Below, piece after piece: positions 3,164 to 16,051 of a stretch of DNA of 45,880 nt. This DNA comes from a virus (lineage: Duplodnaviria; Heunggongvirae; Uroviricota; Caudoviricetes): IMG/VR virus record IMGVR_UViG_2870484749_000003, positions 1-45,880 of that record; one strand, written 5' to 3'. Position 1 is the first letter of the stretch. Every line of letters starts with the position of its first letter. The notes beneath the pieces were generated by a model. It was not told the DNA's origin, did not search any database, and saw nothing but the letters and a program-made list of their open reading frames with translations. The position numbers and the translations under genes were made by a program.

Positions 3164-3957
3164 TACTTCACCTCCTGCGGCGGTTCTGGTAGCGGCATCC
3201 AATTGATTACATCGCATTCAGGGATGCTGATATCATCACCAAGCCACCCTTGACCTTCAGACCAGCATTGCACGTAATACCCGTATTCTGTGTTCACTAC
3301 GCACCACTGCGCGTCGTTCGGCATTCGCTCACTACAGCTTATCCAACCATCCGGAGTTACCGGAGAGTTGCGCATTGCGACCTTTAATGCCTCATAGAAG
3401 CAACCTTTCAGATTGTTGAACTGACGCCCATTAAGAGGACCGTGTTCAGTAAGCATGTTGCGTAATTTCCATGCCGCGTCGTTTACTTCGTTGGATGACA
3501 GGGGAGGCAACTTGTAAGTTTGGCTTACAGGTTCGGCACCATGAAGCATGGCGCCGCTCCGCTCTATGCCATCCAGCGCGATTCGCAGTGCCTGAATTGT
3601 GGTAGAGCTATCGTTTGGGGCTATTCCATATCGCTCGAATACAGCTAAATGGTTGCGCATAATCTCAGGCGTAAGCTCTTTGTAAGCATAAGCAAGAGGC
3701 TCTGATGCATTATCCGGCACAACCGACGCAGGCGCGGCAGCATAAACAGGAATAACGTCCGATTGATCTTTATTGCTTTCATCCGTCAAAGCCCAGAATA
3801 ATTTTCCGGCCGGATGTTTGAAAATATAAGCAACTGGCTCTGCTTCCAGTGATGCCAGTGCAATTCGTGCCAGTTCCATTTGTTCGCCACGGGTAAGCCC
3901 GTTTTCAAGCGGGGATTTAATGAACAATTCGATACGTTCTTTAGTGATAGTGCTCAT
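3163..3957 (-). CDS. phage protein with C-terminal DUF551-like domain
   Basis: C-terminal WCVVNTEYGYYVQCWSEGQGWLGDD...INWMPLPEPP is typical of DUF551 prophage proteins; start taken at MSTITKERIEL. Confidence 0.55.
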   Translation of the reverse strand: MSTITKERIELFIKSPLENGLTRGEQMELARIALASLEAEPVAYIFKHPAGKLFWALTDESNKDQSDVIPVYAAAPASVVPDNASEPLAYAYKELTPEIMRNHLAVFERYGIAPNDSSTTIQALRIALDGIERSGAMLHGAEPVSQTYKLPPLSSNEVNDAAWKLRNMLTEHGPLNGRQFNNLKGCFYEALKVAMRNSPVTPDGWISCSERMPNDAQWCVVNTEYGYYVQCWSEGQGWLGDDISIPECDVINWMPLPEPPQEVK

Positions 3958-6130: not shown

Positions 6131-6254
6131 TTTGTTCTCCACGTATATGCGCTGCACCGCGCTGAATTCGGGTAAAAGGAAGCCCTCACCGTCCGGCGAT
6201 TATTGAGTCAATTACATTTCCATAAATGCCCCCGTAGGGGCGGTTAGTTTCTCC

Positions 6255-6358
6255 ACAAAACAGAGAAGAACACCTGCGGTGGCAGCCGCCCGGATGGATT
6301 GGATTATGAGCCCGTCGTCCGGTGATGCCCTTCTCTGTTTTGTAAAAAGAGCGGTACC
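6255..6358 (-). promoter_or_regulatory. candidate nut/put-like RNA element: boxA-like CGCTCTTTTTACAA followed by a large hairpin closed by a perfect 14-bp inverted repeat
   Basis: On the minus strand, GCTCTTTTTACAA resembles boxA (GCTCTTTAACAA); arms acaaaacagagaag (6255-6268) and cttctctgttttgt (6330-6343) enclose 61 nt; lies in the ORF-free leader of the early-left operon. Confidence 0.3.
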
Positions 6359-6542
6359 AGCCGGAAGCAAGTGTACAAACTGGTACCGCCAAAGCAGTGG
6401 CTGTTGTGGTGACCGGTGCTGATCTCCGGCTTGCGGTTATTTCAGACTCTCACGGGCGTTTAATTGCCCCGCCGAACAGCTCTTTTCCGCAATAGCTGCA
6501 ATGTCTTTCGCGCATCAGCCTGCGCATTCACCACAACGCTGA

Positions 6543-6651
6543 GAGCATTGCCGGTGTCCGAATCGAACGGACCTTTTCCCTGCCCAACCCTCCCATCTGA
6601 ATGGGACTGTCTGGAATTGAACCAGCACTTATGCCTTGCTCGTCAATGCTC
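6543..6651 (-). ncRNA. candidate structured RNA (~109 nt) closed by an 8-bp stem, with three internal hairpins, two carrying tRNA T-loop-like sequences
   Basis: Closing stem gagcattg/caatgctc; minus-strand hairpins CUGG-UUCAAUU-CCAG, CCCAU-UCAG-AUGGG and GUCCG-UUCGAUU-CGGAC; no canonical cloverleaf could be drawn. Confidence 0.25.
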
Positions 6652-6891
6652 TCATCGTTGCGTCCTGGTCTCTTCCCAAGCGTCAAACCGAATCGCCACG
6701 CTGGTTAGGCGTCTTATCAGCATCCTCATTGACTTGCACATTCCGGCTACCTGGTTTGTTTGCCCGAGCAAGGAGTGGATTATCCCCTTTAACGTCCCCA
6801 GACCGCTAACGACGCATGTGCCATACGCCGTGTTACAACCAAATTTTGTTAGTACCTTGTTTGTTTGTCTGGAAAGAAAGATAAAATGAAG

Positions 6892-6930
6892 TTGCGCATT
6901 ATGCAAGTGTTTTTGTTGCGAGATATGCAA
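6892..6930. promoter_or_regulatory. candidate left operator sites
   Basis: TTGCGCATTATGCAA (6892-6906) and TTGCGAGATATGCAA (6916-6930) share the architecture of TTGCGCGTTAAGCAA at the cI/cro intergenic region. Confidence 0.45.
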
Positions 6931-6937
6931 TTTAAAG

Positions 6938-6966
6938 GGTAATGAAAAGCCACCTTTGGGTGGCTA
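6938..6966 (-). terminator. rho-independent terminator downstream of the cI-like gene
   Basis: agccacc-tttg-ggtggct hairpin followed on the minus strand by tttcatt. Confidence 0.55.
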
Positions 6967-6985
6967 ATTGATGAGGAGGTAAGGG

Positions 6986-7678
6986 TTAATTGTGTCGCTT
7001 AAGGGTTTGTGACTGGCTGATTAAGACCTTTCCAAAGACCATAAACCGGTGTTCATTTTCGCTGGTAATTCCCCATTCACGGTAAATCTGGTTATCAGAA
7101 ATCACCAGTAGTTTGTCAGGTATCATTTGCAGTCGTTTGACATAAATTTTATCATCAAAACCAAATACATAGATACCATCTCCATCAAACTGATTGATAC
7201 TGACATCAACGAAGATGAGATCTCCTGGCTCAATGGTTGGACACATACTGTCCCCACGAACGTTGATAACTTTAATGTGATTGGCTGGCCGTCCGCCAAA
7301 CATCGATACAGCATTATCAGTTCTGTATTCAATGGCATGAATCACATCAATGACATCACCGCCCTGGATAAGGCCATTTCCCGCACTGGCACTGACATCC
7401 AGCATTTCAATACGGAATACATCCTTCACCTGCGCAACATCCTCACTAATACTGTTTTTACATACAGTATTACTTTTGACGTCTGAGGTAAAGAGATCAG
7501 CAATATCAACACCTAAGCTCCTGGCAATATTACTCAGGGCTTGTTCAGTGAATTGTTTCTGCTTACCTGTTTCCAGGCGTGAGATATTCGCCGCATCCAC
7601 TCCTATTGCTTCAGCGAGATCGGCGATTTTCATGTTCTTCGCCTGGCGAAGTTGTCTGACTCGGTTTCCTATGTTCAT
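6986..7678 (-). CDS. CI-like prophage repressor (HTH plus S24 LexA-like autopeptidase domain)
   Basis: N-terminal HTH (IADLAEAIGVDAANISRLETG); C-terminal GDSM serine and KR lysine motifs; possible Ala-Gly cleavage site in SASAGNG; divergent from the cro-like gene. Confidence 0.9.
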   Translation of the reverse strand: MNIGNRVRQLRQAKNMKIADLAEAIGVDAANISRLETGKQKQFTEQALSNIARSLGVDIADLFTSDVKSNTVCKNSISEDVAQVKDVFRIEMLDVSASAGNGLIQGGDVIDVIHAIEYRTDNAVSMFGGRPANHIKVINVRGDSMCPTIEPGDLIFVDVSINQFDGDGIYVFGFDDKIYVKRLQMIPDKLLVISDNQIYREWGITSENEHRFMVFGKVLISQSQTLKRHN

Positions 7679-7698
7679 GCGTTTATTACATTTCTTTA

Positions 7699-7770
7699 TT
7701 GCGCGTTAAGCAAATCAACTTGCGCAAAATATTTGCGTGAAATAATATGCTTATCACGCAATATGTGGAG
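7699..7770. promoter_or_regulatory. candidate right operators and divergent promoters
   Basis: TTGCGCGTTAAGCAA (7699-7713), TTGCGCAAAATATTTGCGTGAA and TCACGCAATATG between the repressor and cro-like starts. Confidence 0.5.
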
Positions 7771-7775
7771 GTTAT

Positions 7776-8036
7776 ATGCAATCACCATTACGGAATGTGC
7801 GTAAGGCGCACGGATTTACTTTGCAGCATGTTGCTGCTGGCGTTCAGGTCAATCCAGCGACGCTGAGTCGTATTGAAAGACTGGAACAAATTCCATCTAT
7901 CGATCTTGCAGAACGTCTGGCCAATTTTTTTAAGGGTGAAATCAGCGAAATGCAGATTCTTTATCCGGCACGTTTTCAATCTAGCCAAAACCAGAATGGG
8001 TTTAAACCACAGGAACAGGAGGTAAGCCGTGGGTAA
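7776..8036 (+). CDS. Cro-like HTH (XRE family) regulator
   Basis: 86 aa, HTH FTLQHVAAGVQVNPATLSRIE, divergent from the repressor. Confidence 0.8.
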   Translation: MQSPLRNVRKAHGFTLQHVAAGVQVNPATLSRIERLEQIPSIDLAERLANFFKGEISEMQILYPARFQSSQNQNGFKPQEQEVSRG

Positions 8037-8586
8037 TCATCACTGGAAAGTGGAAAAACAGCCTGAGTGGTACGTGAAAGCTGTCAGAAAAACTATCGCG
8101 GCGTTGCCGGGGGGTTACGCTGAAGCTGCTGAGTGGCTGGATGTAACAGAGAACGCATTATTTAACCGCCTTCGTGCCGATGGCGATCAGATTTTCCCGC
8201 TGGGATGGGCAATGATTTTACAACGTGCTGGTGGCACTCACTTCATTGCCGACGCTGTGGCGCAGTCTGCAAATGGCGTCTTTGTGTCTCTTCCTGACGT
8301 CGAGGATGTGGACAATGCCGATATTAACCAGCGTTTACTGGAAGTCATTGAACAGATCGGCAGTTATTCAAAACAGATTCGTTCGGCAATCGAAGACGGT
8401 GTAGTGGAACCGCATGAGAAGACAGCAATTAACGACGAGCTGTACCTCTCAATTTCGAAGCTGCAGGAGCATGCAGCACTTGTCTACAAAATTTTTTGCG
8501 TTTCAGAAAGTAATGACGCCCGCGAGTGTGCAGCTCCGGGCGTCGTGGCGTCGATTGCTTCTGGTTGTGGAGAAACTAACGCATGA
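8029..8586 (+). CDS. hypothetical early-right protein (possibly a CII-like regulator)
   Basis: 185 aa ORF overlapping the cro-like stop; product assignment is a guess from position. Confidence 0.5.
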
Positions 8587-8921: not shown

Positions 8922-8941
8922 AGGTCGGTCATGAGCACTAA
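8720..8941 (+). CDS. hypothetical protein, alternative frame; C-terminal region looks protein-like
   Basis: [45 protein letters not shown]; stop overlaps the start of the replication gene. Confidence 0.35.
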
Positions 8942-9872
8942 ATTAACCGGCTATGTATGGGATGGTTGCGCTGCGTCAGGCATGAAATTATCCAGCGTGG
9001 CAATTATGGCCCGCCTGGCTGATTTCAGTAATGACGAAGGTGTGTGCTGGCCATCAATTGAAACTATTGCCCGTCAGATTGGCGCGGGGATGAGTACCGT
9101 CAGAACGGCTATCGCACGGCTGGAAGCAGAAGGCTGGTTAACGCGTAAGGCGCGTCGCCAGGGTAACCGCAATGCGTCGAATGTTTATCAGCTTAACGTT
9201 GCGAAGCTTCAGGCAGCGGCATTTTCTCAACTGTCAGATTCTGACCCGTCAAAATCTGACGCATCAAAATCTGACACGTCAAAATTTGATGCGTCGAAAT
9301 CTGGCAAAAAAGCGGGTTTTCACCCGTCAGAATCTGGCGGGGATCCGTCAGTAAAATCAAAACATGATCCGTCAGATAAAAAACCTTCTCGTCCGGACGC
9401 TTCGCAACCGGACACGCAGACGGCTGAACAGGATTTTTTAACTCGCCATCCTGATGCGGTTGTATTCAGCCCTAAAAAGCGCCAGTGGGGAACGCAGGAT
9501 GATTTGACCTGCGCACAGTGGCTCTGGAAAAAAATCATTGCCCTGTACGAGCAGGCCGCCGAATGTGACGGCGAGGTGGTTCGTCCCAAAGAACCGAACT
9601 GGACAGCCTGGGCAAACGAAATTCGCCTGATGTGTGTGCAGGATGGTCGTACTCACAAACAAATCTGCGAGATGTACAGCCGCGTCAGCCGCGATCCGTT
9701 CTGGTGCCGTAACGTGCTCAGCCCGTCGAAGCTGCGGGAAAAATGGGATGAGCTTTCCCTGCGCTTATCGCCGTCCATCAGCACATACACAGAAAAACGC
9801 GAAGACCCGTATTTCAAATCCAGTTACGACAGCGTGGACTACAGCCAGATCCCGGCAGGATTCAGGGGGTGA
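8931..9872 (+). CDS. replication initiation protein (O-like, N-terminal winged HTH), with iterons inside the gene
   Basis: N-terminal wHTH (PSIETIARQIGAGMSTVRTAIARLEAEGWL); SKSDASKSDTSKFDASKSG peptide repeats correspond to DNA iterons, as with lambda ori inside O. Confidence 0.75.
   Translation: MSTKLTGYVWDGCAASGMKLSSVAIMARLADFSNDEGVCWPSIETIARQIGAGMSTVRTAIARLEAEGWLTRKARRQGNRNASNVYQLNVAKLQAAAFSQLSDSDPSKSDASKSDTSKFDASKSGKKAGFHPSESGGDPSVKSKHDPSDKKPSRPDASQPDTQTAEQDFLTRHPDAVVFSPKKRQWGTQDDLTCAQWLWKKIIALYEQAAECDGEVVRPKEPNWTAWANEIRLMCVQDGRTHKQICEMYSRVSRDPFWCRNVLSPSKLREKWDELSLRLSPSISTYTEKREDPYFKSSYDSVDYSQIPAGFRG
9231..9384. repeat. iteron array (putative replication origin)
   Basis: Five contiguous ~15-bp repeats of type nCGTCAAAATCTGAC (9231-9305), then degenerate copies CCGTCAGAATCTGGC, CCGTCAGTAAAATC and CCGTCAGATAAAAAAC. 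Confidence 0.65.
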
Positions 9873-13189: not shown

Positions 13190-14230
13190 GTGAACATTCA
13201 AGCAGTAGACATTTTTTGTGGCGCAGGGGGCTTAACTTTTGGGCTAAAAAAAGCCGGGATTGAAGTTTCTCATGGCATTGATATTGATGAGTCCTGCCGT
13301 TTCGCTATTGAGAGCAATAATCCCTTAACGAAGTTCATTAACCAGTCAGTTACTGAACTGCAATCCAGCGATGTGTCTGCTATGTTCAAGGAAGGAAATA
13401 TTAGATTACTTGCAGGCTGTGCCCCTTGCCAACCGTTTTCCAAGTATCGTAATCCAAATAGCAGAAAAGATGATACAAAGTGGCGTCTTTTATCTGAGTT
13501 TCAGAGGATTGTAAGTGATGTCATGCCAGAGCTTGTGACTATGGAAAATGTTCCTCAACTTAGAAATCATAAGGTTTTTGAAGAGTTTGTTAGTGTATTA
13601 AAGACTCTTGGGTATCATCTGTGGTACGACGTTGTAAAATGTTCCGAGTATGGCTTGCCTCAAAATAGACGTAGATTAATTCTAATTGGGTCCATATTGG
13701 GGCCAATCAGCCTTGATCAAAAAAAAGTAAGCCGTAAAGTTACAGTAAAGGATGCTATTGGTCAGTTGCCAAAAATAGGTGCAGGGGAGAAACTCGAAAG
13801 TGATCCATTGCATCGTTCGCCTAAATTAAGGGATATTAACCTTAAACGAATCTTGCACTCTTTACCAGGTGGTACGTGGGATGATTGGCCTGAAGAAATT
13901 AGAGCGGATTGCCATAAAAAGCATTCAGGTGCTACCTATAAAAGTGTTTATGGACGGATGGTTTGGGACGATACTAGTCCTACAATAACTACCCAATGTT
14001 ATGGATATGGTAATGGGCGATTCGGACATCCTGAGCAAAATAGAGCAATAACTTTGCGTGAAGCTGCTATTTTACAATCTTTTCCTATGGATTATAAATT
14101 TATTGGAAAAAATACGCCTTTTTCATTCCAAAAGTTAGGAACGATGATTGGTAATGCTGTTCCCCCTATAATTGGCCAAGTAATAGGGAGAACGTTTGTT
14201 AGGCATGTTGAGGGGATAAATATCCGTTAG
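13190..14230 (+). CDS. DNA (cytosine-5)-methyltransferase (Dcm-like)
   Basis: Canonical C5-MTase motifs: FCGAGG (I), GCAPCQPFS (IV, catalytic PC), ENV (VI), QNRRR (VIII), GNAVPP (X); GTG start with GGAG RBS; AT-rich by eye. Confidence 0.9.
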   Translation: MNIQAVDIFCGAGGLTFGLKKAGIEVSHGIDIDESCRFAIESNNPLTKFINQSVTELQSSDVSAMFKEGNIRLLAGCAPCQPFSKYRNPNSRKDDTKWRLLSEFQRIVSDVMPELVTMENVPQLRNHKVFEEFVSVLKTLGYHLWYDVVKCSEYGLPQNRRRLILIGSILGPISLDQKKVSRKVTVKDAIGQLPKIGAGEKLESDPLHRSPKLRDINLKRILHSLPGGTWDDWPEEIRADCHKKHSGATYKSVYGRMVWDDTSPTITTQCYGYGNGRFGHPEQNRAITLREAAILQSFPMDYKFIGKNTPFSFQKLGTMIGNAVPPIIGQVIGRTFVRHVEGINIR

Positions 14231-14888
14231 AGATAATATAATCTTCAGTTGAGTTTATTAATAAACGAAGATATAGATCAACTCTCTCTGCTCTAGACTT
14301 AACTTCTTCTAAGGGGTCAATTTGCCCCTTTTTAGAGAAGCTAGTACTTCCATGCGCGAGTTCGTTTCTGATATCCTTAAGCAAGTCTAAGTCAATACCA
14401 TTTCTACATTCAGGTGAGTTTGCGATAGTTATTCCGTAAGCCTGCGTTATTTTGTGTAATACAGGCTTGCAAACATTACCATTGAATTCTTTACGAATAT
14501 TCAATGAGGCTGAAATTATTCTTTTGGAAATGTCAGTGCCTATCTTTTTATAAAGGGATTGCCCTGTTTCATTATCTGAAACAATTCTATGTAATATATT
14601 TACTTGAAGCTTCTCCCTGAGTGATGCGTAATTCACCTCATTATCTTGTAAATGATCATAAATTGACTCGATGCAACCTCTGGCAGTATTTTCAACTTGA
14701 TTATATAGCATCATATGAACGGATGATTTTAAAATATTTACCCTTAGGATATTAGATTCTATTTCATCTTGATGCGCTTGCGGATCTAACTGCTGAGTAT
14801 GAATCTCTATAGATGATGCAAGAGAAAGCAGTTCCATAATGTCTCTTGCTCTTTCTTCATATTCATCTCGTAAATCAATTAGACTCAT
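14199..14888 (-). CDS. HEPN-like nuclease (resembles MAE_28990/MAE_18760 family)
   Basis: C-terminal Rx4H HEPN motif in DIRNELAHG; start 2 nt after the DUF262 stop; 3' end overlaps the convergent C5-MTase by 32 bp; AT-rich. Confidence 0.75.
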   Translation of the reverse strand: MSLIDLRDEYEERARDIMELLSLASSIEIHTQQLDPQAHQDEIESNILRVNILKSSVHMMLYNQVENTARGCIESIYDHLQDNEVNYASLREKLQVNILHRIVSDNETGQSLYKKIGTDISKRIISASLNIRKEFNGNVCKPVLHKITQAYGITIANSPECRNGIDLDLLKDIRNELAHGSTSFSKKGQIDPLEEVKSRAERVDLYLRLLINSTEDYIISNGYLSPQHA

Positions 14889-14890
14889 TT

Positions 14891-16051
14891 TTAAATCCCT
14901 AACAACTTATTTTTAACGTAAAAGATTCTGTTTTTTAGCTGGCTGGTATTGTTTGCACTATCAGCAGTAACAAGTGTTTCAAATTCCTCTTCAAATAGCC
15001 ATTCACCTACAGGTACGGCTGGACTCTGGAGTTGTGGGTTAGTTTTTAATGCAAGTGCAGTTCCCACGGCAATGGCTTCGTATCTGGCTCGTGGGGTGGT
15101 TTTACTTGTTGCGGTCTTTTTAAAGCCAATAGGGAAATGGGTAGCAACAAAAGCAAGCATCATTTCAAAATCATGTTTAAAATTATCAACATCTTGTTGA
15201 GTAGTCACAGCTGCTGCTTGTTCATTTAAATAATTATCAATAAAGGGACGGACAAATCCCTTATAGTTTTCTAAATCATTTAAATATGCAAAAAATCTCA
15301 AAACTAACTCACGATGATCGCCATTCGACCGTTTCCGGTCTGATAATGGAGCTAGTTGGGAAAAAAGTGAGTTTGTTGAGCATGGGGTCACAACATCTTT
15401 ATAGAACATTGAGGTAGCAGCATCTGAGCCATGCCTCACTTCCATCGCTTCTAATCTTTTAACACCTGAGTTGATCCTTTCAAATAAATCTCTTCTATGT
15501 TGTTCCTCAACATCACCTTTCAACTCAATAAATCTTAGTGAAGCTCTTAAAAATCTTCTTTGGCGGCTAGCTAAAAGATCTGAAAATTTGAAACCTTCTA
15601 AACTTTTAAGCTCTTTCAAATCCTTTAACTCAAATTGATCGTTCCAAAAATAATAAATAGAGCGTATCCGTTGTGAACCATCAATGATTTCTACCCTACC
15701 ATCTAATTCAGGGTCTTCATTAAATACATCAGCAATGTAAAGGTAAGGTATTGGAAAGTCTAATAGAATACTTTCTATAAAGCGAGAGGCTGTTTTTGTA
15801 TCCCACTTGTAATCACGTTGATAATCTGGAATAAAAAGCTCGTTTTTGTCATTTTCAATATTATCACCATACTTTTGAATAATGACTTCAACGGTCCACT
15901 CACGTACATTGTATCCAATGTTTCTCTGAGCGAGTCTGATTTCATTGTCAGCGGAAGCGGTTAAAGCTGCAATTTCAGCCTTTTTTCTGTTCTTAGCGTG
16001 TTCATCTTGTATCTGAGCAAGCTCTTCTTTGAGTTCTTTGAGTGTAGTCAT
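14891..16051 (-). CDS. DUF262 (ParB/Srx-like) domain protein
   Basis: IPDYQRDYKW and IDGSQR (DGQQR-type) DUF262 signatures; AAGGAA RBS; no recognisable DUF1524/HNH C-terminal domain; AT-rich. Confidence 0.8.
   Translation of the reverse strand: MTTLKELKEELAQIQDEHAKNRKKAEIAALTASADNEIRLAQRNIGYNVREWTVEVIIQKYGDNIENDKNELFIPDYQRDYKWDTKTASRFIESILLDFPIPYLYIADVFNEDPELDGRVEIIDGSQRIRSIYYFWNDQFELKDLKELKSLEGFKFSDLLASRQRRFLRASLRFIELKGDVEEQHRRDLFERINSGVKRLEAMEVRHGSDAATSMFYKDVVTPCSTNSLFSQLAPLSDRKRSNGDHRELVLRFFAYLNDLENYKGFVRPFIDNYLNEQAAAVTTQQDVDNFKHDFEMMLAFVATHFPIGFKKTATSKTTPRARYEAIAVGTALALKTNPQLQSPAVPVGEWLFEEEFETLVTADSANNTSQLKNRIFYVKNKLLGI

Follow-up and report, generated by a model that had tools for sequence, protein, structure and literature searches.

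We found that the early-left leader of a lambdoid prophage of Escherichia coli encodes what comparative sequence analysis identifies as a conserved, strand-specific, tRNA-shaped RNA structure of 131 nt (hereafter the element). The prophage lies in a 45,880-nt stretch of DNA (the window, i.e., the whole stretch that was analysed; IMG/VR record IMGVR_UViG_2870484749_000003, positions 1 to 45,880), and the element is located inside the leader about 210 nt downstream of the start of a putative pL promoter. One fold, consisting of a four-way junction with two T-arms, a variable hairpin and two purine-rich strands, is common to about 85 distinct homologues. There is good support for regarding these as an apparently undescribed family of structured RNAs that has so far escaped annotation: no description was found in the searchable literature, either by topic or by sequence strings, the site is unannotated by RefSeq in all 78 carrier E. 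coli genomes, and hypothetical open reading frames (ORFs) have been placed over it in several phage records.

Fold and comparative evidence

Two independent pattern scans of IMG/VR, anchored on either the 5′ or the 3′ half of the element, each recovered at least 119 loci, and whichever half a pattern left free proved to be conserved too (e.g., the joining strand J1/2 among the homologues found by the pattern that leaves J1/2 free). The covariation test covered 38 non-redundant homologues (alignment A4) under the structure P1-P2-P3-P4, in which 89% of the cells are paired and 22 of the 40 pairs show compensatory changes on both sides, values that none of 500 shuffles reaches by any measure. Sliding the 3′ partners by 1-3 columns leaves the pairing at only 36-52%, and the same helices were recovered independently by RNAalifold. 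The closing stem P1 comprises 21 pairs with one mismatch or bulge (96% of cells paired), of which eight change on both sides, as when GAUGAG/CUCUUC is set against AGGUAAG/CUUACC and GCGAAG/CUUCGC. Both-side changes are likewise seen in four of the six pairs of P2, in six of the eight pairs of P3, which varies in length and sequence with full compensation, and in four of the five pairs of P4 (98.9% of cells paired). When SPN9TCW, 118970_sal3 and phiNP are aligned, homology begins and ends at the long stem, and the middle hairpin covaries.

By the criterion of a 5-bp stem, a 7-nt loop UUCRANY and a G53-C61 closing pair, every homologue has two T-arms, namely P2 and P4, each of which displays the full consensus with U54, U55, C56, R57 and A58; both loops read UUCRAYY, that of P2 throughout all sequences, and the G-C pair that closes them is invariant. 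The joining strands ACGAGCAAGGCAUAA and UGGGCAGGGAAAAGG are nearly invariant, and they and the T-arm consensus of both hairpins are kept in hosts as far apart as Yersinia and E. coli. The RNA has the layout of a cloverleaf, with a closing stem and three arms, P2 and P3 abutting and P4 lying 2 nt from the 3′ strand of P1. Judged from this pattern of conservation, the T-arm consensus and the near-invariant junction strands would suit an RNA with a definite tertiary structure in contact with some conserved component of the host. A search for tertiary contacts by mutual information returned a sole candidate (C31-G82 to U31-A82), which is confined to one clade and unusable.

We place the RNA on the minus strand because G-U pairs outnumber A-C mismatches 76:23 across the homologues and because the homologue-derived covariance model scores 145 bits on that strand versus 30 bits on the plus strand; the model finds one copy in the window. 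The length ranges over 127-137 nt among the homologues in steps that are not multiples of 3, which, taken together with the compensatory substitutions, marks the element as non-coding. The same two observations exclude a protein-coding reading of the ORFs that overlap it (6464-6889 on the plus strand of the window, and others in mEp460 and sal3). A larger conserved RNA with a 5′ leader was rejected as well: the upstream 330 nt fall into more than 70 unalignable classes, and therefore the conserved part is the 131-nt unit.

An earlier note, made from the letters of the window alone, had described an element of about 109 nt at 6543-6651, in which an 8-bp stem encloses three hairpins. All the strings that it quoted are in place (gagcattg at 6543-6550 and caatgctc at 6644-6651 on the plus strand; CUGG-UUCAAUU-CCAG at 6625-6611, CCCAU-UCAG-AUGGG at 6605-6592 and GUCCG-UUCGAUU-CGGAC at 6572-6556 on the minus strand), and its hairpins are conserved in the homologues. 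The structure is real but was drawn too narrowly, as the true unit spans 6532-6662 and the 8-bp stem is the inner portion of a closing stem of about 21 bp (CGCAACGAUGAGAGCAUUG.CG / CG.CAAUGCUCUCAGCGUUGUG). In single-sequence folding, the 109-nt piece alone is just modestly more stable than shuffles, with z-scores of -2.4 (minus strand) and -2.0 (plus strand), and the full unit gives -4.5, with none of 200 shuffles equally stable. Such folding mispairs the first T-arm (P2), for which covariation favours the T-arm hairpin instead. The note's suggestion of a tRNA-like RNA has gained from the T-arm consensus in both hairpins, the cloverleaf topology and the adjacency to tRNA and tRNA-like genes described below, and its remark that the sequence does not fold into a canonical cloverleaf holds: the element lacks a D-arm, an anticodon loop of 7 nt and a 7-bp acceptor stem ending in a free CCA.

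Searches for known RNA classes bear this out. ARAGORN called no tRNA genes at default and -ps settings and no tmRNA; it made an abnormal 'tRNA-???' call with a 2-nt anticodon (6541-6630, minus strand), which is not a credible gene, only at 80% thresholds, where its tmRNA calls were spurious and permuted. Rfam 15 has no match in the whole window at gathering scores and gives only noise in 6150-7000 at E ≤ 10, with none from the tRNA model at that cutoff, and the tmRNA model picks up just a 9.9-bit fragment on one T-arm of a homologue. We rejected a canonical tRNA on structural grounds, namely that the closing stem of about 21 bp is embedded in the transcript, that a second T-arm-like hairpin stands in place of the D-arm, and that P3 has a 4-nt loop of variable sequence where a tRNA has a 7-nt anticodon loop. 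The two T-arm-like sequences, with the abnormal ARAGORN call, could also be the remains of a decayed tRNA gene or the scar of a tRNA-directed integration site, both of which the earlier note had offered. We regard either as very improbable. Compensatory changes in all four helices and the strong conservation of the unpaired strands speak for strong purifying selection across Enterobacterales, the homologues are not recent copies lacking independent substitutions, ARAGORN is silent at normal thresholds, and neither the tRNA nor the tmRNA model of Rfam matches at E ≤ 10. Moreover, the element sits inside the immunity and early-left leader, far from the att ends of the prophage, with its leader position and single orientation fixed across multiple immunity types.

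The element is either present or absent as a discrete unit with an inverted repeat of 17-21 bp at its borders, as would be expected of a miniature inverted-repeat transposable element (MITE) with terminal repeats that form P1. That reading is scarcely credible: none of the 78 E. coli genomes has more than a single copy, the type of locus and the orientation are constant, the bias of G-U pairs over A-C mismatches speaks for RNA-level selection on one strand, and the supposed repeat stays when its interior is replaced. A BLAST comparison of the region with the window returned only the self-complement of P1.

Other classes were tried and rejected. The hammerhead core consists of CUGANGA...GAAA with an A15.1-U16.1 pair, H17 at the cleavage site and three helices. 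The element has the strings CUGACGAG...GAAA and (C/U)UGACGAG, but position 3 is U in most members, two hairpins and long strands stand in place of stem II, and no U16.1-H17 follows P4 (alignment A4); no Rfam hammerhead match was found at E ≤ 10. An N/nut site, which would call for boxA-boxB in both early operons and an arginine-rich N-like protein, was considered for the small purine-loop hairpin just 5′ of P1 (6680-6664). Most contexts have a hairpin there, but the loop sequence is not conserved; the hairpin has no second copy in the window and no counterpart in the pR operon, and no N is annotated. As a separate observation, E. coli rnpB (locus L178, 317-693) has GAGCAAGGC and GGGCAGGG in common with window positions 6632-6640 and 6578-6585, which lie in the two invariant junction strands and correspond to M1 positions 244-252 and 82-89; a third shared run belongs to a part of the element that varies. 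An equal number of k-mers is shared with RNase P RNA by about 1% of shuffles, and we treat this sharing as unexplained and probably coincidental, not as evidence.

Distribution, leader and optional core

The element was found in 15 records of cultured phages (12 different phages) from E. coli, Salmonella, Edwardsiella, Klebsiella and Citrobacter, in single copy in each of the 78 carriers among 5,426 complete E. coli genomes, and in three plasmid records. Species-representative genomes contributed 13 species, all Enterobacterales (from Yersinia, Erwinia, Brenneria, Buttiauxella, Rouxiella, Ewingella, Izhakiella, Edwardsiella, Citrobacter and Symbiopectobacterium), and 241 million metagenome records gave 56 loci, with 52 clear matches, 50 of them full-length. 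The family is tight and confined to phages and prophages of this one bacterial order, where its hosts are N-less lambdoid prophages of the ST64B, phiNP, SfV or mEp460 type. About 120 loci have a cI-type repressor gene ahead of the element on the same strand, and the element recurs with at least two immunity types and a few other upstream arrangements, with a constant orientation relative to transcription. The genes that follow it on the same strand are early-left genes coding for a yfdP-like product, DUF2303, HD-domain YfdR or RdgC. Since they differ among contexts, and in the eps15-like phages code for a protein without a Pfam match (SPFH-like by eye), a common protein partner was rejected.

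These eps15-like Uetakevirus phages (SPN1S, SPN9TCW and relatives) are the exception to the usual location, as they carry the element on the opposite strand in a cassette between the terminase and portal genes, which includes about 180 nt of lambdoid-type leader beside the element. A real tRNA-Arg(UCU) directly follows, overlapping P1 so that its first 3 nt are also the final 3 nt of that stem. Beyond the tRNA-Arg, the next ORF (SPN9TCW_003; L003 3331-3837) resembles a membrane-anchored SPFH/band-7-like protein without a Pfam match. Its real start is probably an internal Met, and two terminator-like hairpins precede it.

The tRNA neighbourhood is not limited to this cassette. In a scan for T-arm hairpins, 18 of 96 distinct contexts have extra T-arms on the strand of the element within 250 nt; elsewhere within 3 kb there are none on that strand and one on the other. 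The leader of locus L051 has, in order, the element, a 124-nt tRNA-like RNA that directly abuts it, a tRNA-Arg(UCU) and a terminator-like hairpin. The 124-nt RNA (6637-6760 of that locus) scores 45.9 bits on the Rfam tRNA model, with a tetraloop for an anticodon loop and a 56-nt insertion, and has kin at L126 7975-8099, L072 927-1054 (minus strand) and L016 1800-1925, which score 40-46 bits. Genes of this kind have a 7-bp acceptor, a D-arm, a T-arm and an insertion in the variable region, with no anticodon and no encoded CCA; part of the insertion resembles the J1/2 strand of the element (GAGCA..AAGG.CAUAA). A third T-arm-bearing module (e.g., GCAAGCAUCAGGGGAUGGCCGGGUUCCCUACCCGGUUGCGGGUUCGACUCCCGCCGCCCUAC), called by neither ARAGORN nor Rfam, follows the element in L172 (about 3250-3335, minus strand) and also in L135, L136, L149 and L053.

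In the window, the pL leader extends for about 740 nt without a credible ORF and ends at the HD-domain gene yfdR. Operator-like palindromes of OL type and pL are located downstream of the cI terminator on the minus strand (Table 1), and these putative OL/pL sequences are also kept in mEp460 and SfII. The leaders of mEp460 and cdtI are near-identical to that of the window on both flanks, including the terminator-like hairpin, but lack the core: they have a 40-nt plain apex on the same P1 base, versus a 97-nt core in the window. The P1 base ACAAC...GUUGUG, often followed by GUGAAUGCG, is kept under differing apices in mEp460/cdtI, SfII, L200, L218 and L172, and some part of the surrounding 851 bp, from the end of cI to the first early-left gene, is matched in 2,943 of the 5,426 E. 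coli genomes. From these alignments, the long stem is a common feature of such leaders, and the double T-arm core an optional accessory module on top of it. P1-like stems (ACACAAC...AGAGCA / UGCUCU...GUUGUG, then GUGAAUGCG) with unrelated apical domains are found, sometimes in tandem with the element in one leader, at L218 7255-7355, L200 1517-1587 and L172 3645-3726 (on the strand of the element) and at L002 3303-3376 in mEp460. The P1-like stem behaves like a reusable scaffold or recombination joint.

Two further structures follow the element. The terminator-like hairpin, which a simple scanner missed owing to its large loop, is conserved with covariation in L051 and SPN9TCW, and in 26 of 68 contexts the element has a comparable hairpin no more than 450 nt away. 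The second long hairpin, H2, ends just before GGAGAAAC, i.e., before the ribosome-binding region of the first gene; its homologues are widespread in related leaders, it has the base CAAC...GUUGUG in common with P1, and by its appearance it looks like an ideal RNase III substrate.

This arrangement lends itself to another account, in which the element is only a determinant of processing or stability, with P1 serving as an RNase III site or as a block to Rho or RNase E and the core as one of several interchangeable, very stable caps with no function in trans. The retention of the P1 base under quite different apices fits it, as does H2, with its stem of 23 bp and a base related to that of P1, just before the ribosome-binding site of the first gene, in a leader that is as a whole a chain of strong structures. 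We nevertheless think it rather unlikely, as it explains P1 and not the conserved core: a mere cap needs neither two T-arm consensus loops nor about 30 near-invariant unpaired nucleotides across a bacterial order, and its adjacency to tRNA genes would be unexpected.

Table 1. Positions in the window of the element, its parts and neighbouring features
Feature	Position	Strand	Sequence or remark	Basis
Whole element (A)	6532-6662	minus	131-nt four-way-junction RNA	covariance model and homologue alignment
P1, 5′ strand	6641-6662	minus	CGCAAC-GAUGAGAGCAUUG, A, CG	pair counts over homologues
P1, 3′ strand	6532-6553	minus	CG, G, CAAUGCUCUCAGCGUUGUG	
J1/2	6628-6640	minus	single strand AGCAAGGCAUAAG within ACGAGCAAGGCAUAA; near-invariant	
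P2, first T-arm-like hairpin	6609-6627	minus	loop UUCAAUU at 6621-6615; invariant G-C closing pair	
P3, variable hairpin	6591-6606	minus	UCCCAU-UCAG-AUGGGA; abuts P2	
J3/4	6573-6590	minus	purine-rich single strand, about 17 nt; invariant UGGGCA and GAAAAGG	
P4, second T-arm	6556-6572	minus	GUCCG-UUCGAUU-CGGAC; 2 nt from P1 3′ strand, as in tRNA	
Small purine-loop hairpin	6664-6680	minus	CUUGG-GAAGAGA-CCAGG; just 5′ of P1	
Terminator-like hairpin	6344-6390	minus	GGCGGUACCAG(19-nt loop)CUGGUACCGC, then UCUUUUU	-21 kcal/mol, z -4.3
Second long leader hairpin (H2)	6255-6343	minus	two small hairpins on a stem of 23 bp	-46 kcal/mol, z -7.2
Putative OL operators and pL region	6878-6930	minus		direct reading of sequence; promoter assignment predicted
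Putative OL operators	6930-6916; 6906-6892	minus	TTGCATATCTCGCAA; TTGCATAATGCGCAA	
Putative pL	-35 at 6906-6901; -10 at 6883-6878; start near 6871	minus	TTGCAT; TATCTT	
cI-like repressor	6986-7678	minus		
cro	7776-8036			
CII/CP76-family gene	8029-8586			
O-like gene	8931-9872			

The window as a whole holds a lambdoid prophage of E. coli, and the 851-bp query around the element (6150-7000) is 100% identical to strain AR_0014. The immunity region is overall of the SfII/mEp460 type, with operator-like palindromes TTGCA(N6)GCAA at 6878-6930 and 7679-7775, of which those left of cI overlap the plausible pL. In the matching RefSeq region, a fragment of dusA (tRNA-dihydrouridine synthase; window about 1071-1175) at the left side of the prophage suggests that integration was probably dusA-directed, and from this fragment up to the early-left genes the annotation shows no integrase. 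Between the Q antiterminator gene, which RefSeq annotates, and the lysis genes (about 14199-16051, minus strand) are a HEPN-like nuclease of the MAE_28990/MAE_18760 family and a DUF262 protein, adjoining annotated DNA methyltransferase genes. By the RefSeq annotation these two are likely a prophage-borne defence pair.

Candidate functions

Lambdoid prophages without N form a large group in E. coli, Salmonella, Shigella, Citrobacter and relatives. A Q antiterminator but no N gene is annotated in this prophage and likewise in the related Stx2a_1447 phage, and a 2025 study did not find an N homologue in the related LLS/ST64B/phiNP group (PMC12315714). On how such phages run their early-left operon, the answer of specialists has so far been a guess at a put-like RNA mechanism for that group, the RNA itself not being identified (PMC12315714). 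The element is the most conserved non-coding feature of this leader and has a clearly defined fold.

We tentatively favour, as possible though somewhat short of probable, a stable tRNA-mimic RNA that is processed out of the early leader and acts on a host factor. It would be transcribed from pL upon loss of the repressor or upon infection. In its fold, P1 (about 21 bp) takes the place of the acceptor stem, P2 of the D-arm, P3 of the anticodon arm and the purine-rich J3/4 of the variable loop, leaving P4 as the T-arm beside the 3′ strand of P1. Each T-loop could dock on a G-rich junction strand, as the T-loop does on the GG of the D-loop in tRNA, to give a compact, nuclease-resistant, tRNA-like body. 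Host enzymes might excise it from the leader, with RNase III acting on the P1 duplex, which has the about 20 bp or more of near-continuous duplex expected of a hairpin that RNase III is predicted to cleave, and RNase P acting where a tRNA abuts. The released RNA may then act in trans, mimicking tRNA for a host factor that recognises T-arms or tRNA elbows, as a decoy, competitor or recruiter.

This tRNA-mimic reading is favoured because it best explains that the core is optional, that tRNA genes are its neighbours, that both hairpins keep the T-arm consensus in full and that the unit is portable, as it also sits in the separate Uetakevirus cassette. Several points weigh against it. A role in cis would agree just as well with the constant location of the element in a 5′ leader ahead of protein-coding genes, and the eps15-like cassette, having brought about 180 nt of lambdoid leader along, does not test independently whether the unit is autonomous. 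Cleavage of P1 by RNase III is a prediction from the length of the stem, and P1 has no free 3′ CCA end, so that many tRNA-binding enzymes could not use the element.

The main rival is a role in cis as a processive antiterminator or anti-Rho element, in which the nascent RNA would, like put, which needs no protein factors, bind the elongating RNA polymerase and let it pass the terminator-like hairpins that precede the early-left genes, in place of the missing N. The element lies about 210 nt downstream of pL, ahead of a terminator-like hairpin and within a long (about 740 nt) untranslated leader, in phages without an annotated N, for relatives of which specialists have already proposed a put-like mechanism (PMC12315714). 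The order of element, optional tRNAs, terminator-like hairpin and ORFs is repeated in L051 and SPN9TCW, and highly conserved unpaired strands would suit a conserved surface of the polymerase. Against this, neither its sequence nor its covariance model relates the element to the HK022 put region, and its architecture is unlike the two stem-loops of put (PMC9378689). There is a single copy per phage and none in the pR operon, an objection that is qualified by there being no clear terminator seen in the early-right operon of the window. Furthermore, mEp460 and cdtI do without the core and yet have an identical terminator-like hairpin downstream, such a hairpin lies within 450 nt in just 26 of the 68 contexts, sal3 has none in the 180 nt to its next ORF, and the adjacency to tRNA genes is left unexplained. 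On balance we consider antitermination of the put kind unlikely, though a serious contender. A broader variant, also rather improbable in our view, is that the double T-arm RNA represents a new RNA-only class of antiterminator, or some other device with a direct effect on the expression machinery of the host, that gives N-less phages early-left expression and is structurally unrelated to HK022 put; such a device might, for example, use the two T-loops to bind tRNA elbows or RNase P.

The role of the element is directly testable because natural core-less alleles (mEp460 and cdtI) occur in near-identical leaders. If it is true that a trans-acting tRNA mimic is made within the first minutes of infection, this would be a new kind of phage RNA directed at the host tRNA machinery or at tRNA-directed defences. 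Whichever reading holds, the element is a well-supported candidate for a new RNA family, and recognising it prevents the mis-annotation of spurious ORFs over the site in databases.

Comparison with known systems

The element may be classed as a variant of the tRNA-like or phage-leader kinds of RNA. With HK022 putL/putR it shares the nature of a cis-encoded structured RNA just downstream of an early promoter in an N-less lambdoid phage, with terminators downstream. The put RNA is about 70 nt long, has two stem-loops and is present in two copies, at pL and pR (PMC9378689), in contrast to the element, with its 131 nt, four-way junction with T-arms and single copy, which close relatives lack. The covariance model of the element has no match in the HK022 immunity region, where no P1-like hairpin was found either, and no second copy that would make a put-like pair was detected in the window or HK022 by 7-nt-word BLAST and the covariance model.

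YrlA and the bacterial Y RNA-like RNAs are reportedly tRNA mimics. The element resembles them in its long closing stem, a tRNA-like module with a consensus T-arm, the absence of a free CCA and its occurrence in phages; it differs in having two T-arms and no D-arm. Y-RNA-type families gave no Rfam match at E ≤ 10, the Ro/Rsr-binding helix motif not having been searched for, and to our knowledge most E. coli hosts lack Rsr. The P4 CI RNA and the P1/P7 C4 RNA are immunity RNAs of tRNA-like form that RNase P releases from phage leaders and that act by antisense pairing to flanking targets. Like them, the element is a small structured RNA within the leader of its operon, the tRNA-like features of which suggest maturation by tRNA enzymes. 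Unlike them, it has no complementary targets, as the complementarity of its conserved strands to the 300 nt upstream and 700 nt downstream is not above that of shuffled controls, and no Rfam C4 match was found; an antisense RNA of the C4/P4 CI type was therefore rejected.

Canonical tRNAs share with the element the four-way junction, the T-arm beside the 3′ strand of the closing stem, the T-loop consensus and the clustering with tRNA genes, and are set apart by its 21-bp closing stem without a free 3′ end, the lack of a D-arm, the tetraloop and the junction strands of 13 and 17 nt. The 'species 1 and 2' RNAs of phage T4 (rnaC and rnaD) are stable RNAs in a tRNA cluster that are probably co-processed with the tRNAs; compared by description only, they resemble the element as phage-encoded RNAs located among tRNAs, though they belong to the tRNA cluster of a virulent phage and the element to the immunity-proximal leader of temperate phages. 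Finally, the lambda N-leader has an RNase III hairpin in the pL leader, without a tRNA-like apex. What the two have in common is a long, imperfectly paired stem that lies in the pL leader ahead of the first early-left gene and to which the element adds a tRNA-like apex, RNase III cleavage being in its case a prediction from stem length.

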